Source: a phage
Length of the DNA stretch: 42,716 nucleotides
Sequence record: PZ386962.1
Direction: 5' to 3' (one strand)
Shown here piece by piece: positions 3,111 to 30,465 of this stretch. Below the pieces are notes generated by a model that was not told the DNA's origin, did no database searches, and saw only the letters and a program-made list of their open reading frames with translations. Every line of letters starts with the position of its first letter. The first letter of the stretch is position 1. The translations under genes and the position numbers were made by a program.

Positions 3111-3462
3111 CATCCACTCGCGTATGGGTGCAGTGGAGGCTCGTATGCAATCCGTAGAACTTCGACTCGACAAGCACGAGGTACAAATCGCCACTCTTGA
3201 AAAGGGCGATGCTGCAATGCTGGCCAAGCTCGCGGAGAACGATACCCGCTGGCAGACCGTTCAACAGCAGCTCCTTGTGGTTGAGCAAATTCAGGACATT
3301 CAGAAGACTATGAGCCATATCGGTAAGCTCTTTACGGCGGCGGCTCACGCTGTCAAATGGTGTCTCTTAACCGCATCCCTGTGTAGCGGTATCTACTTAG
3401 CGATTAAGGCTGGCGACCTCACGGCTCTCCAGTCCTTTATCACAACGATTATGGGGATGTAA
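3079..3462 (+). CDS. putative holin / lysis membrane protein (single C-terminal TMD)
   Basis: 127-aa ORF between spanin-like gene and endolysin; hydrophilic N-terminal region then one hydrophobic segment (LFTAAAHAVKWCLLTASLCSGIYLAI); start uncertain (internal Met at 3124 possible). Confidence 0.35.
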   Translation: MTEAKKEPTPNIHSRMGAVEARMQSVELRLDKHEVQIATLEKGDAAMLAKLAENDTRWQTVQQQLLVVEQIQDIQKTMSHIGKLFTAAAHAVKWCLLTASLCSGIYLAIKAGDLTALQSFITTIMGM

Positions 3463-3998
3463 TGACTAACTTTGAAATCTGTATGCGGTTCACCGGGCTG
3501 GCAGAAGGCGGTTACGCCAACCTGCCCGGCGACACCGGAGGGGAAACGAATCATGGAATTAGTGACGCTCGTGATGGAAAGCTGGATGGTAGAGCTTGCG
3601 GTGTCCCTACTGGGCTTGGCGGCACTATTTGTGTGCCTATCCGCGACCTCACCAAAGCGCAAGCCGAAGCAATCTATCGACGGGACTACTACAGCCCCAT
3701 CCGAGGTGACGAGCTTCACCCTGCGATTGCATGTGCCGTGTTCGACTACGGCGTTAACTCAGGTGTCTCCCGTGCGGCGAAAGCTCTACAGCGGGTATGC
3801 GGCGTTGCACAAGACGGGGTTATTGGCCCTGCTACCGTGGCAGCAGCCAAACGTCTGGAACCTCGCTCCGCAGCAGCAGCCATCTGTAACCTTCGTATTG
3901 CGTTCCTAAAGGCTTCTACAGCCCCAACAATCGTTCGGTATAGGGATGCCTTGGTAGCTCGTGCAAAACGCTGTAGCGCTTACTGTGCGACGCTGTAG
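3462..3998 (+). CDS. endolysin, GH108-like N-terminal domain with peptidoglycan-binding C-terminal domain
   Basis: EGGY motif near N-terminus (FTGLAEGGYANLPGD) as in GH108 family enzymes; DGxxGxxT-type motif (QDGVIGPATV) as in PG_binding_3 domains; no signal peptide, so holin-dependent. Confidence 0.7.
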   Translation: MTNFEICMRFTGLAEGGYANLPGDTGGETNHGISDARDGKLDGRACGVPTGLGGTICVPIRDLTKAQAEAIYRRDYYSPIRGDELHPAIACAVFDYGVNSGVSRAAKALQRVCGVAQDGVIGPATVAAAKRLEPRSAAAAICNLRIAFLKASTAPTIVRYRDALVARAKRCSAYCATL

Positions 3999-4200
3999 GG
4001 GTATCCGAAAGCTGAGGCAATGAACAGGCCGTGGGTGCAATACCCCGGCTTGAAAATTGACTATTTGTACGTGCCCCTCCCTCGACCCAAATGACCGCGC
4101 GTACCCCCATGACGTGTGCGCGGATTAGCCTCGCGACGTGCGCGATAATTGCTCGCGTGCGCTGCGCGGCGCGTCGAAAGGATTGCCTGCGTTCGGTATA

Positions 4201-4608
4201 GCTCGTGCGTGTCGCGTTTCATCGTCTGCCGTGTGGCGTGCTGTGCGCTGTCCTGCTGGCTGTGCTGTGTGCCTGCTGTGTGGGCTATCGGTGGCGGTGT
4301 GGTGCTGTCCTGTGGGGACGCTCTGCGCTGGCTGTGCGGTGCTGTGCGCTGCGCGTGGTCGTGCGGGTATCTGTCTCTTTTCGTCGTGGTGTGTGGTGCT
4401 GGTGTGTAGCGGTGTGCGGCGTGGTGCTGCCGTCCTGCTGTGTGGTGTGCTGGTCTACTGTCTGCGCCTGCCAGCTCTGCGCGTCGTACTCTGCTACCTG
4501 CTGTTACTGTCCTACTGCCTTCACTGTCTGCCGTCTGTCAGTCCTACGGTCTGCCATCCGTCATCCGTTCGGCGCTCGCTTGTTTCGGCTGCGCCGCGCT
4601 CGCTCTGC
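4201..4608. repeat. A-depleted GT/GC-rich compositional island with degenerate short repeats
   Basis: About 400 bp in which the + strand has only ~16 A by hand count; built from degenerate GCTGTG / CTGTGCGCTG / ACTGTCTGCC units; long ORFs in all three + frames are a composition artefact. Confidence 0.7.
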
Positions 4609-4617
4609 GTATCTAGC

Positions 4618-4635
4618 GATACTATATCACTATAG
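4618..4635 (+). promoter_or_regulatory. T7-like phage promoter core candidate (TCACTATAG) near presumed genome left end
   Basis: GATACTATATCACTATAG: last 9 nt identical to T7 class promoter -8 to +1 (TCACTATAG); reverse complement carries the ATGAAAGTGTCTATAG element also found at 25618. Confidence 0.3.
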
Positions 4636-4651
4636 ACACTTTCATAATTAT

Positions 4652-4672
4652 CTAATGATTACAGTAACTTAT
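4652..4672. repeat. 21-bp direct repeat copy 1 (CTAATGATTACAGTAACTTAT)
   Basis: Exact 21-mer repeated at 4731-4751 within an AT-rich stretch. Confidence 0.85.
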
Positions 4673-4730
4673 AACCTATCTGATAACGGTATTCTATCCA
4701 GTGTTAGGATTATCTAATCAAACTTTAATC

Positions 4731-4751
4731 CTAATGATTACAGTAACTTAT
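4731..4751. repeat. 21-bp direct repeat copy 2 (CTAATGATTACAGTAACTTAT)
   Basis: Exact copy of 4652-4672. Confidence 0.85.
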
Positions 4752-4772
4752 CACTTTTCTTGAAAATAATAC

Positions 4773-4801
4773 TTGCAAAGGTATTCGGTATTTGCTGTAA
4801 T
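4773..4801 (+). promoter_or_regulatory. sigma70-type early promoter candidate 1
   Basis: TTGCAA (-35) - 17 bp - TGcTGTAAT (extended -10). Confidence 0.5.
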
Positions 4802-4878
4802 TCATATCGCCGGACAACACAGCGTCAACGTGTTGGACGGTGTAGGACGGTAACACTGCTCTTTAACAATCTGGTGTG

Positions 4879-4907
4879 TTGACAAGGCAAGCTCACTATG
4901 CTGTAAT
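4879..4907 (+). promoter_or_regulatory. sigma70-type early promoter candidate 2
   Basis: TTGACA - 17 bp - TGcTGTAAT (extended -10 TGn). Confidence 0.6.
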
Positions 4908-5015
4908 GCTTCCACGTCAGCCAGCAAGCTAAACAGTCATTGATAAAGACGTTAAAACACACGTAGGCGAACTGGTACGGTTTAATTAACTCTGAAAGGG
5001 CGCTGATTAAAACGG

Positions 5016-5044
5016 TTGACAGGATGAAATGAGTATGCTGTAAT
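5016..5044 (+). promoter_or_regulatory. sigma70-type early promoter candidate 3
   Basis: TTGACA - 17 bp - TGcTGTAAT. Confidence 0.6.
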
Positions 5045-5095
5045 GCACACCAGATTGACAGGGCAGCAAGCCAGTCAGTCAGAAGTAAAAAGTAG

Positions 5096-5124
5096 TTGAC
5101 ACGCTGAATACGATGTGATGTAAT
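5096..5124 (+). promoter_or_regulatory. sigma70-type early promoter candidate 4
   Basis: TTGACA - 17 bp - TGaTGTAAT. Confidence 0.6.
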
Positions 5125-5556
5125 CAGCACCGAGTTGAAAGGTTGCAAAACAACCTGCTCTGAGTGAACGTAAACAGGCCACGTAGTGTCTCGGCCTCAT
5201 GGGTATCCGGCGCAGCTAGGAACTGGTGAGGGCACCGCCGAAAGGCAATAGGGGTAGCGCCCGGTGCGATGGGAACGGAGAAGCGCGATAGACGCAGCGC
5301 AGTATCAGCACAATCCCAAACGTCTTATAAGGCGCGGAGTGAAGCGGGTAGGTAGGCAAGCTGGTAACGGTGAGCCGGACTGCTGGAGGACTCCTGAGAG
5401 TGGATGCAGACAATATCCACGGCGCGAAATGGGCGGGGCGATTTTTCAGGGTAGTGAATCCGACAAGCCAATCAATGCCAACGAGTGCAGACTGTACGGC
5501 GCGTCACAATGGGTTCACTATCCACCTGAAAATAGCCAACAACTGGAGAAATTAAT

Positions 5557-5946
5557 ATGTACCGTATCTATGCAAGCGCATATCGTCAGGGCAACGCTGA
5601 GTCAGTCAATCTGGCGCTTCATTGCAAGGCACTGCGAACGGTGCAGGACATGTTCGGAGTGGTTCCGGTCACACTGACAGGCAAGTTCGACAATGCGTAT
5701 GAGTTAAGCATGGTCTTCCCTGTCGATGGAATCTACGAAATCCGACAGGCTGTTAAGCTGTTTTGTAAAGCCTTCGAACAGGACTGCATCATGGTAGTGA
5801 CCAAAGACGACGATGCAATCTTCATGGACTCACCGTATCCGGGTAAGCCTGCTGGCAAGCTGGTCAGCAAGACTAACGAGGAAATGGAAGCCGGGCAGCA
5901 TACCGCTTGGACTTACGATGGTGAGCAATTTTGGGTAGTGGAGTAA
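5557..5946 (+). CDS. hypothetical early protein
   Basis: 129-aa ORF, GGAGA RBS 6 nt upstream, first well-supported ORF downstream of the promoter cluster. Confidence 0.6.
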   Translation: MYRIYASAYRQGNAESVNLALHCKALRTVQDMFGVVPVTLTGKFDNAYELSMVFPVDGIYEIRQAVKLFCKAFEQDCIMVVTKDDDAIFMDSPYPGKPAGKLVSKTNEEMEAGQHTAWTYDGEQFWVVE

Positions 5947-6120
5947 GGAGCATGACTATGTTCACTGCACTGTGTGTTATTGCGGCGGCGTGTTGGGTTA
6001 TTGACCAGCGCCTGCCTAAGCGAGCCTGATATGTGGGACTTACTGGTAGCGTTATTCTGGTTCGTCTTTGCAGGCTTGTGGATTTACTGGCTGACTCGTC
6101 CCAAATTATGGTGACTGCCT

Positions 6121-6142
6121 AATGCGTCTTGCGAGGCGCATT
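6121..6142 (+). other. intergenic RNA stem-loop (8-bp stem, TTGCGA loop)
   Basis: AATGCGTC-TTGCGA-GGCGCATT; same loop sequence with different stems recurs at 7075 and 7484. Confidence 0.5.
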
Positions 6143-6178
6143 GTGAAGTAACCAACCAACAACCCGACGAGGTGTATC

Positions 6179-6706
6179 ATGACTACTGTTAAATATACTG
6201 CATTCAAAGACGCTGCCGCTCTGGACAAGGCCATTGAGTCTACCGTCAAGAAGGCGCACTCACTGCGTACCGACATCCAGAACGTTGCTGTCGGCATCAT
6301 CCTGCACGCTTACCATCACGGCGACTACACTCGTGCTGAATCCTTCGTGAATCAGCTCGGTCAGGGTGTCCGTGGCAAGGCGCTGGTAGACTGGTTCGTC
6401 AAGTTCGGCGGCCTGATTATCGGTGAGAACGGCGGGAAACAGGGTTTCATTGGCTGGCAGGGCGCTGAGTATATCAAGGCGAACATTGACACGGCCAAAG
6501 CCACTATGTGGTGGAGCCTGAAACCGGAGCAGACCTTCGAAGGCTTCGACCTGCAAGATGCGCTCGAAAAGCTGATTGCCAAAGCTGAGAAGGCGCTGAA
6601 CAAGGCCAATGAGCTGCGTCACGAAGGCAAGGACGAAGACGCGAACAAGGTAGTGGTGCCGCAGAACGTCCTCGACCTGCTGCGCAAGGCTAAACAGGCT
6701 GCCTAA
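6179..6706 (+). CDS. hypothetical early protein
   Basis: 175-aa ORF with GAGG RBS. Confidence 0.6.
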   Translation: MTTVKYTAFKDAAALDKAIESTVKKAHSLRTDIQNVAVGIILHAYHHGDYTRAESFVNQLGQGVRGKALVDWFVKFGGLIIGENGGKQGFIGWQGAEYIKANIDTAKATMWWSLKPEQTFEGFDLQDALEKLIAKAEKALNKANELRHEGKDEDANKVVVPQNVLDLLRKAKQAA

Positions 6707-6781
6707 GCGGGATTGACTCAAGCCAGTGTCAAGGCGCTGGCTTTATGGCAATTCTGCCCCAACCTATTCGGAGTATTACCC

Positions 6782-7063
6782 ATGACTATCAAAACTGTAA
6801 CTGCATTCGTGACCAAGAAAGCTGGCGAACTGTATGGCTTCGCTGTTTCCCTGAACGAAGGCCAGTACCTGCACCACGTCCGTGAAGAAGGCGAGCCGAC
6901 TGAGGCCGTAGCCATCCTCGAAACGTTGCAGGGTATCCCGCTGCCGCACGAGTTCATCATCATGCTCGCTGAGCAGGACGAAGACGACCTGCGACTGCGC
7001 CACGGTGACGACCTGACGATTGAAGAAATCGGCACGTTCGAAGCAGAAGTAGACGACGAGTAA
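6782..7063 (+). CDS. small acidic early protein
   Basis: 94 aa from internal ATG with GGAG RBS; Asp/Glu-rich acidic C-terminus; preceded by hairpin plus GGCAAT-N4-TGCC box. Confidence 0.55.
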   Translation: MTIKTVTAFVTKKAGELYGFAVSLNEGQYLHHVREEGEPTEAVAILETLQGIPLPHEFIIMLAEQDEDDLRLRHGDDLTIEEIGTFEAEVDDE

Positions 7064-7074
7064 GCGTTGTCCTG

Positions 7075-7096
7075 CTGCATCCTTGCGAGGGTGCAG
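7075..7096 (+). other. intergenic RNA stem-loop (8-bp stem incl. one G-U, TTGCGA loop)
   Basis: CTGCATCC-TTGCGA-GGGTGCAG followed by GGCAATAGTGCC box. Confidence 0.5.
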
Positions 7097-7134
7097 CGTG
7101 GCAATAGTGCCTTACTCAATCCGAGGGTTTTAAT

Positions 7135-7476
7135 ATGAGCATCAAACTTGTAATCCTGACCAACATCGCAGCTTCCGCATTCGGCGCAGACGTACCGGAA
7201 GAAGCGCGTACTGCTGAGTGGGTGGCGTTCACCTCCGACGACGAGGGCTACCTGATTGCAGGCCGCAACCGCGACGGCGACTCTGCCGAGGACATCGTGG
7301 CGCACTTCGACGCTGACGAAGGCTTCGCTGGGTTCGCAGCTTCTGGCCTGCCGCTGGAACTGTTCGGCATGATGAACGGCGTGCCTTTCATCGACCGTGA
7401 GAAGCTGGGCGCAGACGTGTCTGTCACCGAGCTGAAAGTGTACGGCGAAGAAGATGACGTAGACTTCTCTGCGTGA
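7135..7476 (+). CDS. small acidic early protein (possible DNA-mimic-type anti-host protein)
   Basis: 113 aa, about 25 percent Asp+Glu by hand count with few basic residues; GAGGG RBS. Confidence 0.6.
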   Translation: MSIKLVILTNIAASAFGADVPEEARTAEWVAFTSDDEGYLIAGRNRDGDSAEDIVAHFDADEGFAGFAASGLPLELFGMMNGVPFIDREKLGADVSVTELKVYGEEDDVDFSA

Positions 7477-7483
7477 TACCTTA

Positions 7484-7505
7484 CTGCCTCGTTGCGACGG
7501 GGCAG
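7484..7505 (+). other. intergenic RNA stem-loop (8-bp stem, TTGCGA loop)
   Basis: CTGCCTCG-TTGCGA-CGGGGCAG followed by GGCAATCATGCC box. Confidence 0.5.
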
Positions 7506-7541
7506 TGCGGCAATCATGCCCCAATCTACTGAGGATTTATT

Positions 7542-7817
7542 ATGTCCACTATCAATGTGTTTTCCCTGAATAACGGCGGTCTGGCTTTCATCGTTGGCGA
7601 GACTGTTGACAATGCACCTTCACTGGGTGTGCAGCCGAAGCCGGACGCAAGCCATGACGAGGTGATTGGCGAGGTGCGCGAGGCGCTGGAAGACCTCGGC
7701 GGTATGCTGATTGCCATTCAGGGTGGCAAGCTGTCGGTTGAAAAGCTGAATGCACTGGAGCCTCGCTTCATCACCAGCTTTGAAGCTGACAACGTAGACG
7801 CGGCTGACTTCGAGTAA
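7542..7817 (+). CDS. small acidic early protein
   Basis: 91 aa, GAGGA RBS, acidic composition. Confidence 0.6.
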   Translation: MSTINVFSLNNGGLAFIVGETVDNAPSLGVQPKPDASHDEVIGEVREALEDLGGMLIAIQGGKLSVEKLNALEPRFITSFEADNVDAADFE

Positions 7818-7852
7818 GCCGACCACTAACCCACCAGTAACAGGAGAACAAC

Positions 7853-8089
7853 ATGGCTAAGTTTGAACTGGTACGCTTCACCGACCCGAACGATGGTGAA
7901 GTAACCTATGCACAATTCGCTGACGACCGCCAGCAGGTGGCAGTGTACACCAGCAAGACCTTTGCTTTCGAACAGTTCGGTGAGGAACTGCACTTTGACA
8001 GCGTGAGCTACGTGCTGCTGTCCGGTGGTGAGTACGCCGATGCAGTGCAGGCCGCACTGGATGAAGGTGAAGTCATCAAGACTGCGTGA
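7853..8089 (+). CDS. small acidic early protein
   Basis: 78 aa, AGGAGA RBS. Confidence 0.6.
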   Translation: MAKFELVRFTDPNDGEVTYAQFADDRQQVAVYTSKTFAFEQFGEELHFDSVSYVLLSGGEYADAVQAALDEGEVIKTA

Positions 8090-8157
8090 TTTCTGTCAGC
8101 CCATCCATAGCGGTGGGCTGTAGGGCAATCATGCCACAACTAACTGAGGGTTTTACC

Positions 8158-8442
8158 ATGGCTAAAGTAACTGCATACTACTCCGCACAAGAGAAAGACA
8201 TCGTGGCTGTTGTTGGTGACGGCTTCGAAGAAGGCAACTATGCGCTGTGCATTTCCGGCTGCAAAGAAGTACCGAAGCTGAACACGGTTGATGATGCTGT
8301 GGCTGCGCTGCCGTCGCTGCAAGCTGACATCGAACGCATGGGTGAGCTGGCCTTCCTGCTGCACGGTGGTTCGCTGAACGCTACTGCTTCGGTTGACATG
8401 CCTGCCAAGGGCTACGAAGAAGTCGGTAGCTTCGAGGTCTAA
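8158..8442 (+). CDS. small acidic early protein
   Basis: 94 aa from ATG with GAGGG RBS; preceded by stem-loop and GGCAATCATGCC box. Confidence 0.55.
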   Translation: MAKVTAYYSAQEKDIVAVVGDGFEEGNYALCISGCKEVPKLNTVDDAVAALPSLQADIERMGELAFLLHGGSLNATASVDMPAKGYEEVGSFEV

Positions 8443-8444
8443 GC

Positions 8445-8780
8445 ATGGCGTTGCATCCGGTCAAGGTATTCCGTGGGCCTGACATTACGGATGGGCAAGA
8501 CGTGGCGGTACTGCTGTACCGCCTGCCCGATGGTCAGGAAGGGCTGGTCGTCATCGACCAGATTGAAATCTTAGGGCAGCAGATGTTGACGAGTGAGGCG
8601 AGCGACGAGCAAATCATCGAACGCTTCAAGGCGTACGCCGGGCGCAGGCCATTCATCATCGACCTGCTTAACGAGCTGCACTACAGCGCCGCGCCGCTGG
8701 CTATCCAGACGTGGCTCAAGATTCTCACTCCCATCTACGAGGGTGAGATGTATCTGTTTGGTATTGACAACGAGGAATAA
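8445..8780 (+). CDS. hypothetical early protein
   Basis: 111-aa ORF, GAGGT RBS. Confidence 0.55.
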   Translation: MALHPVKVFRGPDITDGQDVAVLLYRLPDGQEGLVVIDQIEILGQQMLTSEASDEQIIERFKAYAGRRPFIIDLLNELHYSAAPLAIQTWLKILTPIYEGEMYLFGIDNEE

Positions 8781-8782
8781 TC

Positions 8783-9028
8783 ATGGGTAAGAAAGTAACT
8801 TTGAAAGTAGTTAAGCGCCGCCCCGGATTCACCGTGGGTACTGAGTACCCGGCAGTGCTGATTGCTGAGGGCGAGAATCTGGTCAAGGCATTCCCTAAGC
8901 TGGCCTCGGTGTACGGCAAGGGCGCTGAGGATGTGGCAGGCTACGAAACTGTAGCCGTACTGGACGAGCGTGGCCATCCGTGTGACTTCTTCACGCAGGG
9001 CTATCACGACTGGTTCGAAATCGTTTAA
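8783..9028 (+). CDS. hypothetical early protein
   Basis: 81-aa ORF, GAGGA RBS. Confidence 0.55.
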   Translation: MGKKVTLKVVKRRPGFTVGTEYPAVLIAEGENLVKAFPKLASVYGKGAEDVAGYETVAVLDERGHPCDFFTQGYHDWFEIV

Positions 9029-9058
9029 CCAACCACCTAACCAAGAGAGGGTAACAAC

Positions 9059-9301
9059 ATGGCACGTTCTATTCTGATTCGCATCATCGGCCACACCGCA
9101 CAGCCGTCCCATTTCTCCGGCGCAGTGCGTGACACTACCATCGGTAAAGAGTACGCCGCTCTGCTGGTTGAAGCTGGCGAAGAAATCCCGGACGGCTGGG
9201 AAACTGACGAGCAAGGCATCGCGTTTGTTGATGACGTGGGTGATGACTGCTTCGCATACAGCTCGGCGCACCTCGGACACACCATCGAAATCGTCGAGTG
9301 A
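9059..9301 (+). CDS. hypothetical early protein
   Basis: 80-aa ORF, AGAGAGGG RBS. Confidence 0.55.
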   Translation: MARSILIRIIGHTAQPSHFSGAVRDTTIGKEYAALLVEAGEEIPDGWETDEQGIAFVDDVGDDCFAYSSAHLGHTIEIVE

Positions 9302-9357
9302 TAAGCTACAGCCTCTGCTTGCGGGGGCTGTGTCATTATCAAACGAGCGAGGTGAGC

Positions 9358-9510
9358 ATGAGCGGCAGCACATACAATGCGCACGCCAACCAGATAAGCT
9401 ACGCAGGGTACTGCGCACTGGGTGGGGCGAGCAACCCGAACCTAATGAGCCGGGCGGTGTATCTCGGCGGTCACTACATGCACCACGAATACTATTTAAT
9501 CAGGGGGTAA
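9358..9510 (+). CDS. hypothetical small protein
   Basis: 50 aa from ATG with GAGGTG RBS; preceded by stem-loop at 9309-9330 with TTGCG-containing loop. Confidence 0.35.
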   Translation: MSGSTYNAHANQISYAGYCALGGASNPNLMSRAVYLGGHYMHHEYYLIRG

Positions 9511-9512
9511 CT

Positions 9513-9797
9513 ATGGTACTGGCATCTGAAAGTATTATCGAACAGGCTGGCGCAATCCGTGAAGCTGAGCATCTGCGTGGGGTAGCCGCAACGCTCGGTC
9601 ACTGTGCTGGCAACGGCGGTCTGCGTGGGCATTCAGTCGGCGGCGTATTTCCCTGCGTGATATTCTCGCGGGGCAACCCACATGAACACCTCGACTGGTG
9701 CTTCCTCGCACCGAACGGCGACGAGTTCGACGGCTTCGTAAGTTATGAAGATGCGTATGCAGCCGCGCAGGTATGGCTGGAACAACGAGAGGTGTGA
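9513..9797 (+). CDS. hypothetical protein
   Basis: 94 aa from ATG with GGGGG RBS; upstream part of the longer listed ORF lacks an RBS and overlaps other genes. Confidence 0.5.
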   Translation: MVLASESIIEQAGAIREAEHLRGVAATLGHCAGNGGLRGHSVGGVFPCVIFSRGNPHEHLDWCFLAPNGDEFDGFVSYEDAYAAAQVWLEQREV

Positions 9798-9799
9798 GT

Positions 9800-10099
9800 A
9801 TGAGTAAGTGGAAAGATAACGTAGCCAAGCTACAGCGTTGGTTGGTCGATGCCTTTGGCGCACCGCCAGCCCCTGTGCATGACGACTCGCCGTTCCAATA
9901 CGTCGAGAAGAAAACGCAGGAGCTTAAGCTGGGTGACTACGTGGTAGCATACGGCGGTTACATCCAGCGCATCGGTGCCGTGGAGTATGACGGCAGCCGA
10001 CTGGTCGTAACCAAGTTAGGGCATGGGCCTGAGCGTGAGTGGCAGGCGTACGAAGATGACGAGTTCACCGTCCGTATTCTGAAAGAGGATAACAAATGA
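9800..10099 (+). CDS. hypothetical protein
   Basis: 99 aa from ATG with GAGGTG RBS. Confidence 0.5.
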   Translation: MSKWKDNVAKLQRWLVDAFGAPPAPVHDDSPFQYVEKKTQELKLGDYVVAYGGYIQRIGAVEYDGSRLVVTKLGHGPEREWQAYEDDEFTVRILKEDNK

Positions 10100-10608
10100 T
10101 TGACTTCAAAACTTTTAACCCGAAGCAGTTGGAAGTGATTAAGCTGCTGGCTGCACACATCGACAGCGAGCCTATGCTCAGTGAGCTGGTAGAGTTCAAG
10201 GGTGGCTACCTGCCGAAGCAAAGTTACATCGGCGCGGTGCGTGCCGGGCGCGAGGGTATGCTGGACATTGTTCCGGCCACTCGTACTGGTGCGCTGCTGG
10301 CACGCAACGTCAGCGTCATCATCGGCATGAACATGCGAGCTGCGCAGGCAGACGGTGACGAGGAGTTGCAGGTCGAGCTGCGTCTGGCTGGTAAGATGGC
10401 AGCGCAGGCTATGTCCTCGGTTGATATTGCTGAGAAGTATCACGACTGGTACATGGCGTGCTCCAATGTGCCGGGGGATATTAGCGAGACGGCGCTGGGT
10501 CTGCTGTTCGTGGGCGAGTTCATTGACACAACGATGCGTACTATCAAGGGCAACGTTGAGCAGATGATTCGTGCAATGCTGGAGTCGAAGAATGCAACGC
10601 GACACTAA
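10096..10608 (+). CDS. hypothetical protein
   Basis: 170-aa ORF, AGAGGA RBS, start overlaps upstream stop. Confidence 0.55.
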   Translation: MIDFKTFNPKQLEVIKLLAAHIDSEPMLSELVEFKGGYLPKQSYIGAVRAGREGMLDIVPATRTGALLARNVSVIIGMNMRAAQADGDEELQVELRLAGKMAAQAMSSVDIAEKYHDWYMACSNVPGDISETALGLLFVGEFIDTTMRTIKGNVEQMIRAMLESKNATRH

Positions 10609-10762
10609 GCTGGCCGTAGTCAAATCACCCACCGGATTATTCTGGTGGGTTGTTAATAAACTCCAGCCGAATAAACCTTTGGCTGTGCGTGACACAAAGT
10701 GGGAAGCCGAGAGTAAACTCGAAGACCTGCAACGCATAGTGCGTAATGTTATTCCGGTGTAG
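10592..10762 (+). CDS. hypothetical small basic protein
   Basis: 56 aa, GGAG RBS, overlaps 3' end of previous gene. Confidence 0.35.
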   Translation: MQRDTKLAVVKSPTGLFWWVVNKLQPNKPLAVRDTKWEAESKLEDLQRIVRNVIPV

Positions 10763-10772
10763 TCATCTACTC

Positions 10773-10797
10773 ATGCCTGTTATTATTTAGCAGGCAT
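10773..10797 (+). other. stem-loop (7-bp stem ATGCCTG/CAGGCAT, AT-rich loop) at early/middle boundary
   Basis: Perfect 7-bp inverted repeat with 11-nt loop; no U-tract; followed immediately by the ATGAAGGTGTCTATA motif. Confidence 0.35.
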
Positions 10798-10835
10798 TAT
10801 GAAGGTGTCTATATTGGCCAACGTGAGGATGAAAT

Positions 10836-11039
10836 ATGTTCCGAGTTATATTGTTGTTCCTGTTCCTCGTTATTATTTGGGGAGCTTTATGGATGGCGCT
10901 GGCAGTGTTCGCACTGATACCAGCCATCGGTGAGTCGGCTACTTCTTCGGTGGGTACGCTGCTCGGTATGCTGGTAGGCTGGGGCTTGATGCACGTAAGC
11001 CTGAGCGTAGGTCAGAGCCGGAGGTGGATTAGATGGTAA
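10836..11039 (+). CDS. small membrane protein (2 predicted TMDs)
   Basis: 67 aa, hydrophobic segments VILLFLFLVIIWGALWMALAVFALIPAI and GTLLGMLVGWGLMHV; GAGGA RBS. Confidence 0.55.
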   Translation: MFRVILLFLFLVIIWGALWMALAVFALIPAIGESATSSVGTLLGMLVGWGLMHVSLSVGQSRRWIRW

Positions 11040-11473
11040 AGCCTAAGTACAAAATCGGTGACGAGATTGTAGGTCACAACGACACTGGCACCCGGTCAGG
11101 TAAGCTGGGTATCATCGCATGGGTTAACCCTGACCGCCGAGCATGGGAGCGCAGTGGTGAGACCCGCTACATCGTGAGCTGGATTGGTGAGCGGCTGAAT
11201 GCACAGCCGGACATCAGCCACTACAAGTCTGATTGGCTGGAGGATAACACCAGTCTGGTCAGCCGCAAGCCAGAAGACCGGGGCCGCTACATGTGCTTGG
11301 TCGAAGGCAGCAATGCACCGCCGAAGGTTGAGCACATCACTGAACTGGATGCGCGGGAAGAAGCTGAGCGTTTGGCTGAGCGCAACGGAGGTACTGTCCG
11401 TGTGCTGCAAGTTGTAGCCAGCGTGAAGATGAAGAAGAAGATTCAGTACATACCAGAGTGGGATAACGAATGA
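11033..11473 (+). CDS. hypothetical protein
   Basis: 146-aa ORF, GGAGG RBS. Confidence 0.55.
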   Translation: MVKPKYKIGDEIVGHNDTGTRSGKLGIIAWVNPDRRAWERSGETRYIVSWIGERLNAQPDISHYKSDWLEDNTSLVSRKPEDRGRYMCLVEGSNAPPKVEHITELDAREEAERLAERNGGTVRVLQVVASVKMKKKIQYIPEWDNE

Positions 11474-12180
11474 TGAAATCAGTGAGCAACGACGAGTGGC
11501 CGGAGCTGGCGAAGCGTCTGCCAGTAGGACAAAAGCGAAGGACGTTTCACAGTTGCTCGCGGTCATTCAGCAAGACCAACTTTGAGTATGGCCGTGCGCC
11601 GGATTACATCTGGTGCAAGTGCCATCGCTGTGGGTACAGCCGCAAGCATGACCTGACCCATGCAGTGTACGTACCGCCAGCCGAGGTGCAGGTGAAGGTG
11701 CCGACTGATGTTGTGCCTATCACTGAGGTGATTGCCAAGCAGCCCCGCCTTCTCCTGCCTGTGCTGGAGCGCGAGAACCTGATGCCGCACCTGTCTATCC
11801 TGACTGCAAGCCCAACGTATGGCAGGCTGTATCTGCCGGACGACACGGGCAGCTACTGTGGTCTGGATTACACCGGGCGGCAGTTCATACCATGGCGCTC
11901 ACCGCACAAGCATAGCTTGGCGATGAAGGTACACCCGCGAGGTGAGGCTGAGACGAATTGCCTGTGGGTATACGGTGAGGTGGACGAGTATCTCCAGCAG
12001 GTACGTGACGGGGGCAACTGTGCTTTCGTGCCGAACGTGGATGACACGACATTGCAGGCACTGGTAAGTGTGACGCTGGCCTATGGCTACAACCTCGTGG
12101 TCATCTGCCACCACCCAAGTGCTCAACGTATCCGCAGGGAACTGCGTGTGGTAGGGCGAGTGCAGATAGTAGGAGAGTGA
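11470..12180 (+). CDS. DNA primase (zinc-binding + TOPRIM-like)
   Basis: Cys/His cluster near N-terminus (CKCHRCGY), acidic TOPRIM-like motifs (VYGEVDE, NVDD); lies where the primase half of T7 gp4 sits, upstream of the helicase. Confidence 0.55.
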   Translation: MMKSVSNDEWPELAKRLPVGQKRRTFHSCSRSFSKTNFEYGRAPDYIWCKCHRCGYSRKHDLTHAVYVPPAEVQVKVPTDVVPITEVIAKQPRLLLPVLERENLMPHLSILTASPTYGRLYLPDDTGSYCGLDYTGRQFIPWRSPHKHSLAMKVHPRGEAETNCLWVYGEVDEYLQQVRDGGNCAFVPNVDDTTLQALVSVTLAYGYNLVVICHHPSAQRIRRELRVVGRVQIVGE

Positions 12181-20278: not shown

Positions 20279-21402
20279 TGACCAAGTTAACTAATCACCA
20301 ACTCAAAGAAGACATTGCCGAAGGGCTTGGCACCAAGGCCATTGCTGAAAAGCACGACATGACCGAGAGCGCCATTCGATACCGGAAGCGCCAGCTTGCC
20401 AAGAGCGGCTGGAGTCCTGAGCACGACATGACGAAGGAGGTGCCGGAGCCGTACGCGGTGAAGGGTACGTCCACGCTGTACGATAAGGACGGCAACGTTG
20501 TCATGCAGTGGGTGAAGACAGCACTCGACCGTGAGCAGGAGCTGGCGCTGCTGCAAGAAGCTGTCGATGCGATTAGCGAGAGCATCACCCCGGAAGCTGC
20601 CCGACCGTACGCCGGGGGCGCGGCACCTGCCGAGCTGCTGAACCTGTTCGTGCTGACTGACTACCACCTCGGTATGCTGGCATGGGCAGAGGAAACTGGT
20701 GACGACTGGGATATGAAGATTGCGGAAGACCTGCTGGTCAAGTGGTTCTCGGCAGCGATTGCCAGTGCGCCGCCAGCACAGGTTGCCATCTTCGGCCAGC
20801 TCGGTGACTTCCTACACTGGGATGGGCTGGATGCAGTGACACCTTCGAGTGGGCATGTGCTGGATGCAGACACGCGATTCCAGAAGCTGGTGCGTGTGGC
20901 TATCCGGGCGCAGCGCCGCATCATTGGTATGCTGCTGGAGAAGTTCCCGCAGGTTCACGTAGTGTGTGCCGAGGGCAACCACGACATGGCCAGCTCCATC
21001 TGGATGCGTGAGCTGCTGCATGTCCTGTACGCTGACGAGCCGCGTGTCACCGTTGACCGCAGCCCCGACCCGTACTACTGCTATGAGCATGGCGAGACGG
21101 CACTGTTCTTCCACCATGGTCACAAGCGTAAGGCAGAACAACTGGAGACTATACTGGTCGCCAAGTTCCGCGAAGTGTATGGCCGAACCAAACATGCGTA
21201 TGCGCACGTTGGCCACCTGCATCACAAGAAGGTACTGGAGTCTGGTGTCATGGTCGTTGAGCAGCACCGTACGCTGGCAGCGAAGGATGCCTATGCCTCT
21301 CGTGGTGGTTGGCTGAGTGAGCGCAGCGCGAGCGTGATTACTTATCATGCCCGGTACGGTGAGGTCGCACGATTCACGATTAGCCCGGAGATGTTAGAGT
21401 GA
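20275..21402 (+). CDS. calcineurin-like metallophosphoesterase with N-terminal HTH
   Basis: Phosphoesterase motifs GDFLHWDG, EGNHDM, HHGH, GHLHH; N-terminal helix-turn-helix-like segment; AAGGGGA RBS. Confidence 0.6.
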   Translation: MMTKLTNHQLKEDIAEGLGTKAIAEKHDMTESAIRYRKRQLAKSGWSPEHDMTKEVPEPYAVKGTSTLYDKDGNVVMQWVKTALDREQELALLQEAVDAISESITPEAARPYAGGAAPAELLNLFVLTDYHLGMLAWAEETGDDWDMKIAEDLLVKWFSAAIASAPPAQVAIFGQLGDFLHWDGLDAVTPSSGHVLDADTRFQKLVRVAIRAQRRIIGMLLEKFPQVHVVCAEGNHDMASSIWMRELLHVLYADEPRVTVDRSPDPYYCYEHGETALFFHHGHKRKAEQLETILVAKFREVYGRTKHAYAHVGHLHHKKVLESGVMVVEQHRTLAAKDAYASRGGWLSERSASVITYHARYGEVARFTISPEMLE

Positions 21403-25613: not shown

Positions 25614-25633
25614 TATATGAAAGTGTCTATAGT
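25614..25633 (+). promoter_or_regulatory. candidate phage RNAP promoter upstream of late genes
   Basis: TTATATGAAAGTGTCTATAG: AT-rich upstream part, TATA then G at presumed +1; 22-nt match to reverse complement of 4624-4645; ATGAARGTGTCTA core also at 10799 and 25906. Confidence 0.3.
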
Positions 25634-25699
25634 GATATGTATCACGCTACCGGTAGCCCCGTCAGTGGCGGGGGTTACTGCCACTAAGAGAGGATTGTA

Positions 25700-25891: not shown

Positions 25892-25905
25892 GGAGAGTTG
25901 TCGGT

Positions 25906-26325
25906 ATGAAAGTGTCTACTATGGGAAATACATCACACACGACAATGCCACTCGACATTCGCCGTGCTGTGGCCGAGGGCATCCAAGCCGAGCGGCCATG
26001 GTCAGACTTATCTCCCGATGTGATTGTTGACAGCATGTACGAGGCCACCGCCTCCGGTTGTGTTGACGTTTACATCACTGACGATGACAACAGCCTCATG
26101 GCCGTTGCACACATCGGCAGGTTATTCGATATTCATGTGGGCGAGATGGTGGTCGTTATGGCCTCATACGTCTGGCCCCCGTACAGAAACCGTGGAGTGA
26201 TGCGTGCCATCCTCCGTGTACTCAAAGACGTGGCCCGTTCAGAGGGTGTGCGTTGGTGCGGTTACTCCCATATGGTGCGGCCTTACGTTCAGGAGTACCG
26301 CTTCATTGATTTGGAGAAACCGTAA
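25906..26325 (+). CDS. hypothetical protein (weak GNAT-like motif)
   Basis: 139-aa ORF, GGGAGAG RBS; RNRGVMRAIL resembles acetyl-CoA binding motif of GNAT enzymes, weak. Confidence 0.5.
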   Translation: MKVSTMGNTSHTTMPLDIRRAVAEGIQAERPWSDLSPDVIVDSMYEATASGCVDVYITDDDNSLMAVAHIGRLFDIHVGEMVVVMASYVWPPYRNRGVMRAILRVLKDVARSEGVRWCGYSHMVRPYVQEYRFIDLEKP

Positions 26326-29416: not shown

Positions 29417-30409
29417 ATGGCTGATAACACCTATACCCCAAATCAGTTCCGTCCACACTGGGGTGGCGCGAACTCTGATAACGACATCCACCTTGAGGTG
29501 TATGACCGTGATGTTCAAACCCAGTTCATCTACAACTCCATCTTCCGTTCCGGTCTGACCAACTTCAAGTCTGTGGCTAACCAGTCCAACACTTGGCGTG
29601 GCGACCGTCTCGGCTCTGTGACTGTTAAGGGTCGTCGCTCTGGCGAGGCGCTGGACAACCAGCCAGTTCGCTCTGAGAAACTGATTGTCACTGTGGATAC
29701 CGTGTCTTACATCCGTATCCCGATTGACTATCAGGACGACTGGACTGCGCCGGACTTCCGCGCTGAGCTGACCCGTAACATGGGTACTGCACAGGCGAAG
29801 GCGTTCGACCAAGCGCACGTCATCCAGCTCCAGAAGTCTGCTGACTTCGTGCCTCCGGCTTCTCTGGCTGGTGCGTTCAACGCAGGTATCAAGGAGCAGG
29901 TCACTCTGACTGGCACCGTGGCATCTGAGGAAGATGATGCGTCTGCGCTGGTACACGGCCACAAGAAAGCTATCGAGGCGTTCATTCGCCGCGATGCTGA
30001 CCTTGGCCGACTGGTTACGCTGATTGACCCGGCGTGGTTCAGCATTCTGCTGGAGCACAAGAAACTGATGAACGTTGAGTTCACTGGTGGTCGTGGTGTC
30101 AACGACTTCGCAATGCGTCGTGTTGCGTATGTCAACGGTATCCGTATCATCGAGAGCAACGCGTTCCCGCAGGCGGCAATCACCGACCACATCCTCGGCC
30201 CTGACTTCAACGTCACCGCCGACGAGATTCAGCGCAAGATGATTATCTTCGACCCGTCTCTGGCTCTGGTCACTGTCGAAGCCCAGCCGCTGTTCAACCG
30301 CGTATGGGATGACGAACGTGAACTGACCAACGTTCTGGATAGCTTCCACATGTACACCGTGGGTCAGCGTCGTCCAGACGTGGTTGCTGTAGTTACCACT
30401 GAGTCCTAA
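29417..30409 (+). CDS. major capsid protein (T7 gp10-like)
   Basis: 330 aa; lies after scaffolding gene; AAGGA RBS; followed by hairpin terminator as for T7 gene 10. Confidence 0.8.
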   Translation: MADNTYTPNQFRPHWGGANSDNDIHLEVYDRDVQTQFIYNSIFRSGLTNFKSVANQSNTWRGDRLGSVTVKGRRSGEALDNQPVRSEKLIVTVDTVSYIRIPIDYQDDWTAPDFRAELTRNMGTAQAKAFDQAHVIQLQKSADFVPPASLAGAFNAGIKEQVTLTGTVASEEDDASALVHGHKKAIEAFIRRDADLGRLVTLIDPAWFSILLEHKKLMNVEFTGGRGVNDFAMRRVAYVNGIRIIESNAFPQAAITDHILGPDFNVTADEIQRKMIIFDPSLALVTVEAQPLFNRVWDDERELTNVLDSFHMYTVGQRRPDVVAVVTTES

Positions 30410-30419
30410 TGGTAAACTC

Positions 30420-30442
30420 GAAGCCCTTCTCTGAGGGGCTTC
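30420..30442 (+). terminator. stem-loop terminator candidate downstream of capsid gene
   Basis: Perfect 7-bp stem GAAGCCC/GGGCTTC with 9-nt loop, followed by TATGATTAT; same placement as T7 T-phi. Confidence 0.5.
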
Positions 30443-30465
30443 TATGATTATCACTGGGAGGTTTT

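Follow-up and report, generated by a model that had tools for sequence, protein, structure and literature searches.

Intercistronic cassettes ahead of small acidic early genes in a Bonnellvirus coliphage are most likely T7-type RNase III processing sites

The early region of the phage genome in sequence record PZ386962.1 raises a question: what is the hairpin-and-box element that stands in nearly the same form before four of five consecutive genes for small, strongly acidic proteins? The stretch analysed, hereafter the window, is 42,716 nucleotides (nt) long, and its sequence places the phage among the T7-like coliphages of the genus Bonnellvirus. Over positions 6000-9500, the window shares 98% identity with Escherichia phage altidsur and 86% with phage LF82-23, both members of that genus. 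An earlier note on this DNA had taken the shared cassette as a sign of duplication. Our analysis leads to a different answer, in which the cassettes are most likely T7-type RNase III processing sites joined to ribosome-binding sites rather than duplication scars; the same cassette types precede different genes in the related phages J8-65 and Lidtsur. The five open reading frames (ORFs), here A to E, begin with an ATG at 6782, 7135, 7542, 7853 and 8158. Each has a Shine-Dalgarno sequence, and all five match genes called in the GenBank record of altidsur. In map order, the genes and cassettes are as follows.

6707..6781, plus strand: cassette A, with an interrupted hairpin at 6707-6758 and the box at 6747-6758, then the Shine-Dalgarno sequence
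6782..7063, plus strand: protein A, 93 amino acids (aa), 23.7% Asp+Glu, net charge -16, acidic C-terminal half and tail
7064..7134, plus strand: cassette B, with an interrupted hairpin, the box at 7100-7111 and a Shine-Dalgarno sequence
7135..7476, plus strand: protein B, 113 aa, 21.2% Asp+Glu, net charge -17
7477..7541, plus strand: cassette C, with the box at 7509-7520 and an upper stem of 11 base pairs (bp)
7542..7817, plus strand: protein C, 91 aa, net charge -11, paralog of E by profile comparison
7853..8089, plus strand: protein D, 78 aa, net charge -10, no upstream cassette
8090..8157, plus strand: cassette E, with the box at 8124-8135 and an upper stem of 9 bp
8158..8442, plus strand: protein E, 94 aa, net charge -9, phrog_32287, paralog of C by profile comparison

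The box GGCAATNNTGCC occurs in exactly four perfect copies, at 6747, 7100, 7509 and 8124. In that order they precede A, B, C and E, ~25 nt ahead of the ATG, and each copy sits after a strong hairpin of 9-11 bp. Thus, the statement in the earlier note that four of the five genes share the cassette holds to the letter; D has none and is preceded only by a 35-nt unstructured spacer. The four cassettes occupy spacers of 65-75 nt between co-oriented early genes, downstream of promoter-like repeats.

Folding covered 51 cassette copies, of which 43 are distinct, taken from the window and the genomes of 13 relatives. For 41 of the 43 distinct copies, the minimum-energy fold is one extended interrupted hairpin, with the box directly after the upper hairpin. 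The box GGCAAUNNUGCC forms the 3' strand of a lower stem of 7-9 bp whose partner is the stop-codon region of the upstream gene, and the lower stem, a short middle helix and the upper stem add up to ~20-21 bp. The two exceptions, at 2576 in J8-65 and 1097 in Lidtsur, fold otherwise, with a spacer that parts the box from a hairpin resembling the T7 site R1. In the window, the helix lengths are 9+2+10 bp for cassette A, ~7+2+11 for B, 7+2+11 for C and 8+3+9 for E. Cassette A has a lower stem of GCGGGAUUG and CAAUUCUGC, a 10-bp upper stem and the flanks ACUCAAG...CUUUAUG. In cassette C, GCGUGAU, which starts at 7471 and includes the UGA stop codon of B, pairs with AUCAUGC of the box; in cassette E, GCGUGAUU, which starts at 8084 and includes the stop codon of D, pairs with AAUCAUGC of the box.

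Covariation was assessed on an alignment of 16 distinct cassette copies. Pairing is present in 98.7% of cells but falls to 35-51% once the 3' partners are shifted by 1-3 columns, and none of 500 shuffles matches the observed pairing or covariation score. Compensatory changes appear in both helices (at the lower-helix pair 6-50, for instance, 11 sequences have UA and 5 have GC), and the sequence of the upper helix is wholly different between cassette types. A covariance model of the Bonnellvirus element recovers the four window sites at E values from 1e-17 to 4e-9, the next match in the window having E = 0.03. Cassette B, which was left out when this model was built, still scores 38.5 bits (E = 4e-9). 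Every related genome that was searched with the model yields 1-5 copies, among them that of a 42-kb metagenomic relative at a greater distance. The E = 0.03 match, at 21330-21354 on the plus strand, reads GAGCGUGAUUACU-N-AUCAUGCCC, that is, both lower-stem strands with no upper hairpin, within a coding region; it is probably a chance occurrence. A search of Rfam with positions 4000-12000 returned nothing at E <= 1.

T7 early-region intergenic spacers were folded for comparison. The T7 sites R0.3, R0.5 and R1.1 are built in the same way as the Bonnellvirus cassettes (a lower stem, an internal loop, and an upper stem of 9-11 bp with a tetraloop, ~two helical turns in all), and both sets lie between cistrons of an early operon that the host transcribes, where the spacers measure 62-75 nt. 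The arrangement ACUCAAG-stem-CUUUAUG is common to the three T7 sites and cassette A; R1.1 reads ACUCAAGG...CCUUUAUGAUUG and cassette A reads ACUCAAGCC...GGCUUUAUGGCAAU. With R0.3, R0.5 and R1.1 as its only input, a covariance model matches positions 6707-6758 of the window with 35.2 bits, E = 1.8e-6 and 17 of 17 pairs standard; cassette A is recognisably homologous to these T7 RNase III sites. The T7-only model also matches the A-type cassettes of four other Bonnellvirus genomes, LF82-23, glasur, J8-65 and Lidtsur. Its best match in the window is a further site at 30407-30457 on the plus strand (38.5 bits, E = 2.6e-7), in a 56-nt spacer just after a 330-aa ORF at 29417-30409 that is probably the major capsid gene. 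This match points to a late-region RNase III site.

The T7 cleavage positions, reportedly placed after nt 890, 1468 and 5887 by Dunn and Studier (1983), all fall at CUUUAU^G in the folded sequences. By homology, cassette A is predicted to be cut between 6746 and 6747, which is the 5' edge of the box. The feature tables of two T7 GenBank records list no RNase III sites; the cleavage coordinates were cross-checked by their common position at CUUUAU^G and by the GCAA tetraloop of R1.1, which PMC1540722 mentions. Substrates cleaved by the RNase III of Escherichia coli usually span ~two helical turns, require ~11 bp between the cut site and the (tetra)loop, and may carry internal loops that confine cleavage to one strand and so leave protective 3' hairpins (PMC1540722, PMC3867540). 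All four cassettes agree with these published features, each being a hairpin of ~20-22 bp with an internal loop or bulge at the target. The likeness to T7 has its limits. Cassettes B, C and E differ from the T7 sites in internal-loop sequence, the T7 sites lack the invariant GGCAAUNNUGCC 3' strand that all four cassettes carry, and the building of the lower stem with the upstream stop codon is a feature of the cassettes. The two phages also belong to different subfamilies, and the RNA polymerase gene here lies late, in the replication module. From structure and homology, we consider it quite likely that cassette A is processed by RNase III, and reasonably likely that cassettes B, C and E are.

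The same folds could instead be intercistronic hairpins that stabilise or attenuate the transcript, as barriers to 3' exonucleases or as partial terminators, and not RNase III sites at all. The upper stems are strong, GC-rich and capped by tetraloops, as such a role would have it; the T7 motif is missing from types B, C and E, and UUUAU comes after the hairpin of cassette A. However, three of the four cassettes have no U-tract, and the terminator scan is empty. Nor would a plain barrier account for a lower stem that is conserved, covaries, makes use of the stop codon and lengthens the helix to ~20 bp, or for the finding that cassette A significantly matches genuine RNase III sites of T7. We regard this explanation as quite unlikely.

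A second alternative concerns the box itself, whose GGCA-N4-UGCC could be the operator of an RNA-binding translational regulator, or could refold after cleavage into a 5'-terminal hairpin that keeps RNase E away from the monophosphorylated mRNA. GGCA and UGCC are invariant in all cassette types though unevenly paired in the long hairpin, RNAalifold chooses the GGCA/UGCC mini-hairpin, this mini-hairpin has a probability of ~0.97 if the RNA begins at the box, and in cassette A the box starts exactly at the predicted cut. Against these observations stand a stem of just 4 bp (-3.5 kcal/mol), the failure to identify a candidate RNA-binding protein, T7 sites that do without such a box, and the wholly inferential nature of the proposal. 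We consider it highly unlikely.

Several further readings of the box and hairpins were tried and rejected. As a sigma-70 promoter, the box has no acceptable -35/-10 pair in or after the hairpins and lies too near the ATG, ending ~25 nt before it; as a sigma-54 site, its sequence gives the wrong GG-N7-GC spacing. The box occurs nowhere else in the window and is unrelated to TATGAARGTGTCTATAKTG, a candidate promoter of the phage's own RNA polymerase, which excludes it as a phage-RNA-polymerase promoter. TATGAARGTGTCTATAKTG has four copies versus none expected by chance, at 4628-4646 on the minus strand and at 10798-10816, 25616-25634 and 25905-25923 on the plus strand; the copy at 4628-4646 faces leftwards near the genome-end region. 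The cassettes are not intrinsic terminators, none being detected by the terminator scan, nor are they like the attC sites of integron cassettes, since there is no integrase and the hairpins are explained by the T7 homology.

In addition to the box-bearing cassettes, relatives carry a second class of hairpin (ACAGGCC...GGCCUGAAU.GUAA) that resembles T7 R1, which reads ACAGGUC...GGCCUGAAUAGGUA. Hairpins of this class, of the form ...ACUGACAGGCC-loop-GGCCUGAAUUGUAA..., are found in altidsur at 3590-3655, in J8-65 at 2922-2989 and 3258-3329, and in Kc261 at 1056-1119.

What do the genes between the cassettes encode? The earlier note had described five ORFs of 78-113 aa, rich in Asp and Glu and poor in basic residues, and they are present as described, with isoelectric points of 4.05-4.30 and Lys+Arg making up merely 5.5-6.5% of residues. 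The acidic tails it had seen on several of the proteins are those at the C-termini of A, B and C. Its run of five stands, and the acidic run itself is longer, since F (8445), H (9059) and an ORF at 9513 are likewise acidic. These further genes are tightly packed small early genes.

8445-8780, plus strand: F, net charge -10
8783-9028, plus strand: G
9059-9301, plus strand: H, net charge -11

The acidity of A to E is not a matter of chance. In a ranking of all 48 predicted proteins by their net charge per residue, the first eight in acidity form one contiguous block, 6782-9797, and A to E hold five of the top six places. On this scale A stands at -0.17 and B at -0.15, with a range of -0.10 to -0.17 for the five; the same computation gives -0.24 for T7 Ocr. 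Pairwise ratios of nonsynonymous to synonymous substitution rates (dN/dS) for the five genes against four relatives are 0.05-0.44, and these values indicate that A to E are real coding genes under purifying selection. For comparison, the primase has a dN/dS of 0.03-0.04 against three of the four relatives. Values for A are 0.14-0.23 and those for D 0.43-0.44; B and D evolve fastest, and B, at 64% aa identity to LF82-23, diverges fastest of the set.

The relatedness of the proteins bears directly on duplication. The earlier note had seen weak similarity between the products of the ORFs at 7542 and 8158, C and E, and this proves to be genuine homology. C and E align directly at a profile E value of 9e-6, and both connect to a Lidtsur-type intermediate (E = 3e-14 for C, 4e-8 for E). 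Similarity of the profiles is full-length, with conserved VVGD, F-L-x-GG-x-L and SFE motifs, and one profile recovers both groups; on these sequence grounds C and E are true paralogs. E also matches phrog_32287, which has no function assigned, at 1.5e-8. In glasur, forsur and ROV85, the E slot is occupied by a C-like gene with 47% identity to C. All-against-all hhalign comparison of shallow local families returned only two links, C-E and G-H. The latter pair, G (8783-9028) and H (9059-9301), are paralogs at an hhalign probability of 95.6% (E = 1.3e-8) and, by sequence, constitute a second small-gene duplication in the acidic block.

The A family, which takes in gp04 and gp05 of J8-65 and homologues in Kc261, aligns with the C/E family co-linearly over 83 columns in hhalign (E = 3.5e-4). 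AlphaFold2 models of C (predicted local distance difference test, pLDDT, 93; predicted template modelling score, pTM, 0.85) and A (pLDDT 87, pTM 0.75) have the same order of elements, beta-beta-beta-alpha-alpha-alpha-beta (beta3-alpha3-beta). Profiles and models together suggest that A is probably a distant relative of C and E. We propose that A, C and E share the beta3-alpha3-beta fold as one diversifying superfamily, with B and D separate. Searches with B and D against the deeper A and C/E profiles gave nothing significant, the best being B versus A at E = 0.009. Consequently, pairwise comparison of the five, as the earlier note had suggested, relates C to E and probably A to both, with no detectable relation for B or D.

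A Foldseek search of the C model against viral models returned proteins of Lidtsur (A0A4D6DYW5), Pantoea phage LIMElight (E1Y3Y1 and E1Y3Y2) and Salmonella phage slyngel (A0A6G8RA28), with template modelling (TM) scores of 0.85, 0.71, 0.56 and 0.51, probabilities of 0.97-1.0, 9-24% identity and similar size. A usur protein is also among the matches, and the LIMElight pair have consecutive UniProt accessions. The Lidtsur, LIMElight and slyngel proteins thus have the same predicted fold as C and come from phages of enterobacteria; all matches are uncharacterised. The N-terminal capping domain of the enolase superfamily (e.g., 2qde, 3q45, 2p88) also resembles the fold, with marginal scores and 6-16% identity; since this domain is a sub-domain in enzymes, the match has no functional implication.

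Family databases added little. For the five proteins, Pfam gave no match near the gathering threshold (best E = 0.18, to unrelated families), NCBIfam gave nothing at E <= 1, and PHROGs gave only phrog_32287, for E. Matches to PDB profiles, which included Pumilio, designed repeat proteins and, for D, antibody heavy-chain variable segments, were judged to be chance. The antibody match covers residues 5-60 of D and the segment from complementarity-determining region 2 (CDR2) to framework region 3 at E ~2e-3; the IDPNDGE.T.AQF string of D is similar to antibody CDR2, and we read this as a chance resemblance of FxDPNDGEVTYAQF to a beta-hairpin motif. Profile searches and structure prediction, both of which the earlier note had recommended, gave alpha/beta models for A and C and no match to a DNA mimic or a characterised protein.

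We moderately favour the reading that the proteins are stoichiometric binders or inhibitors of host proteins early in infection, acting in host takeover or counter-defence. This reading follows from their position, timing, acidity and patchy distribution rather than from homology. Directly upstream of the genes stand a SAM-lyase anti-restriction gene and three candidate host promoters, and because the genes' products are acidic and the genes themselves early, under purifying selection and patchy among close relatives, they fit the profile of accessory host-interaction genes. The earlier note had also proposed candidates for anti-defence or takeover; the early, acidic and accessory profile makes that proposal plausible, and the analogy it drew to Ocr has no structural or sequence support.

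Ocr and the other small class-I proteins of T7-like phages are likewise small, acidic, first-expressed and dispensable on laboratory hosts, and they are located beside or instead of an anti-restriction function, as here. At least one of the five proteins could be a DNA mimic like Ocr that fills the groove in which restriction, BREX or other defence or host enzymes directed at nucleic acids bind DNA. The net charge per residue of -0.10 to -0.17 (against -0.24 for Ocr), the 5.5-6.5% of basic residues, the acidic tails on A, B and C, the neighbouring anti-restriction SAMase and the accessory, fast-evolving character of the genes speak for such a role, and the proteins do have the high negative charge and few basic residues of DNA mimics (net -9 to -17). 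In contrast, searches of Pfam, NCBIfam and PDB profiles turned up neither Ocr nor ArdA nor another mimic, no Ocr chain appeared in the PDB profile searches of the five proteins, and the charge of C, D and E is only moderate. Ocr is all-helical, with acidic side chains placed like the phosphates of bent DNA, whereas A and C are modelled as alpha/beta; Ocr has no sequence or profile similarity to the five, and their charge density is lower. DNA mimics are not known to share a common fold, and the missing fold similarity is for that reason not decisive. Charge is the one positive line of evidence, and we consider mimicry quite unlikely.

The protein families, as far as sequence searches reach, are found almost only in Bonnellvirus-like phages. 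A tblastn search of 50,697 phage genomes placed A, B and C nowhere outside Bonnellvirus. In a search of 5.8 billion proteins, B matched 2 clusters and the A and C/E profiles 24 each, the full-length contigs being ~42 kb. An exhaustive HMMER search of 1.84 billion representative proteins gave 15 clusters for the C/E profile, one of them spurious. One candidate, P0057, a repetitive protein of 523 aa with six stretches that match the C/E profile, was rejected as a low-complexity or helical-repeat artefact. Protein B gave no family, PDB or paralog link.

Gene content differs even among close relatives. Altidsur has an extra gene ahead of A, forsur retains B only as a stump, and usur has only a 5' remnant of C, with D and E absent. 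In ROV85, A and B are missing and an in-frame fusion at 5184-5714 joins the N-terminal part of the 175-aa gene to a C-like C-terminus. In J8-65, gp07 (4005-4418) is a B-like N-terminal segment fused in frame to a homologue of the 9513-9797 ORF, and the D homologue stands behind an A-type cassette. Cassette types are not tied to particular genes.

Such mosaicism raises the possibility that the cassettes are primarily DNA-level linkers for the exchange of homologous modules between co-infecting phages, with RNA processing a compatible second role. The model for such linkers is the promoter-early stem-loop (PeSL) cassette of T4-type phages, reportedly described by Arbiol and co-workers in 2010. 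PeSLs are likewise a repeated intergenic stem-loop element that flanks small variable early ORFs with mosaic breakpoints nearby. Between the window and LF82-23, identity is 100% to ~6750 and then ~80% inside cassette A, a divergent B (58-74% identity) lies between cassettes at 86-88%, and the synonymous substitution rate (dS) leaps from 0 to 0.9 between adjacent genes; J8-65 and Lidtsur have the same cassette types before different genes. However, the deletions (B in forsur, C to E in usur, the ROV85 fusion) end within genes and not at cassettes, and covariation at the RNA level means selection on structure. In a PeSL, the stem-loop is followed by an early sigma-70 promoter, and no promoter component is detectable in the cassettes of the window; unlike in PeSLs, cassette structure and sequence point to RNase III processing. 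Linkage as the primary role is very unlikely in our judgement. Given the identity drop in cassette A, the dS leap and the untied cassette types, the cassettes may also serve as recombination linkers.

Bonnellvirus, with J8-65 as its type phage, belongs to Autographiviridae, now Autoscriptoviridae/Stentvirinae; papers on Bonnellvirus, J8-65 and Kc261 do not treat the early region. The gene order in the window agrees with the altidsur annotation, and all genes are on the plus strand. From left to right, the early region consists of the endolysin gene, 1.5 kb of non-coding sequence, the SAMase gene, a gene for a 175-aa protein, many small ORFs and the primase gene (11470-12180). Its other features are listed below.

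4879-4907, 5016-5044 and 5096-5124, plus strand: three TTGACA-N17-TGTAAT repeats, candidate early promoters for host RNA polymerase, from sequence
5557..5946, plus strand: SAMase (S-adenosylmethionine lyase), anti-restriction, first gene of the early operon, annotated in altidsur and J8-65
5959-6029 and 6031-6114, plus strand: two tiny hydrophobic ORFs, MFTALCVIAAACWVIDQRLPKRA and MWDLLVALFWFVFAGLWIYWLTRPKLW, between the SAMase gene and the 175-aa gene
6109..6154, plus strand: intercistronic hairpin before the 175-aa gene, without the GGCAAU box (RNAfold)
6179..6706, plus strand: 175-aa early protein of phrog_1448, a family with no function assigned, net charge +2, non-acidic
9299..9341, plus strand: intercistronic hairpin with an 11-bp stem and without the box, at the end of the E-F-G-H unit

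The TTGACA-N17-TGTAAT repeats are probably early host promoters, analogous in position and number to the A1-A3 promoters of T7, and a leader of ~430 nt separates them from the SAMase gene downstream. The SAMase homologue of one relative (L015) contains PF23780, S-AdoMet_lyase. Of the tiny ORFs, that at 5959-6029 has a good AAGGAG Shine-Dalgarno sequence, that at 6031-6114 begins 1 nt past its stop codon, and relatives carry no annotation for either. The hairpin at 6109..6154 is similar to the T7 R1-like hairpins at the equivalent place in relatives. Farther to the left, the stretch 4200-4600 is strongly G+T-rich, strand-asymmetric and non-coding, with degenerate GTGCTGTG-like repeats; a pair of direct repeats, each of 30 nt, comes after it at 4652-4681 and 4731-4760. 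The G+T-rich stretch probably belongs to the genome-end or packaging region, and the long ORFs listed in it look spurious.

Taken together, our current hypothesis, which we hold to be moderately likely as a whole, is a class-I early operon on the T7 plan whose transcript is cut by RNase III and whose proteins are directed at the host. Host RNA polymerase would start at the three promoter-like repeats (4879-5124) and proceed rightwards through the SAMase gene and the small genes. Host RNase III would then cut the ~20-bp interrupted hairpins between most cistrons, as at T7 R0.3, R0.5 and R1.1, breaking only the 3' side of the internal loop (6746/6747 in cassette A). The mRNA upstream of such a cut would keep a protective 3' hairpin, and the one downstream would begin ~35 nt ahead of its ATG. 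Processing of this kind is predicted to yield the mRNA units A, B, C-D and E-F-G-H, D being probably co-processed with C on one mRNA.

Several observations weigh against this account. Cassettes B, C and E were not reported by the T7-only model at E <= 10 and lack the ACUCAAG/CUUUAUG motif, so that their assignment derives from shared architecture, including the lower stem, from the shared box and from position; RNase III processing in general is deduced from structure and from the homology of one cassette type. The reverse comparison, in which the Bonnellvirus model was run on the first 7 kb of T7, had R0.5 as its best match at a non-significant E = 0.25. The box is conserved beyond the needs of pairing, GGCA and UGCC being invariant, and an additional or different role may exist. 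The promoter-like repeats have a G at position 2 of the -10 element, which is normally invariant, and it is for this reason that a consensus promoter scan missed them. Lastly, the hhalign probability for the match between the A and C/E families is 37%, and Pfam, NCBIfam, PDB profiles and Foldseek gave no characterised homologue of the proteins by sequence or fold.

A bolder version of the hypothesis, which we think rather unlikely, is that A, C and E, perhaps with their neighbours, form an undescribed beta3-alpha3-beta superfamily whose paralogs are exchanged between RNase III-site linkers and neutralise different defences, some of them by DNA mimicry with a new fold. The GGCAAUNNUGCC box would then be dual-purpose, acting as the 3' strand of the RNase III substrate and, once cut, as a 5'-terminal hairpin that protects the mRNA.

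The proteins themselves are real, fast-evolving, dispensable, genus-restricted, single-domain and acidic. The layout is the familiar T7 class-I paradigm in another genus and no departure in kind from known phage biology. If the processing sites are as predicted, the T7 strategy of cutting the early transcript at RNase III hairpins reaches a distant genus with phiKMV-like gene order, and exact cleavage predictions, such as a 5' end at G6747, can be given. The shared upstream cassette would be a shared processing signal, which corrects a tempting inference of gene duplication. The analysis also leaves a short list of real, dispensable and very acidic early proteins, two of them with confident models and no close structural relative, and these could reasonably be entered in E. 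coli screens for counter-defence or host takeover.

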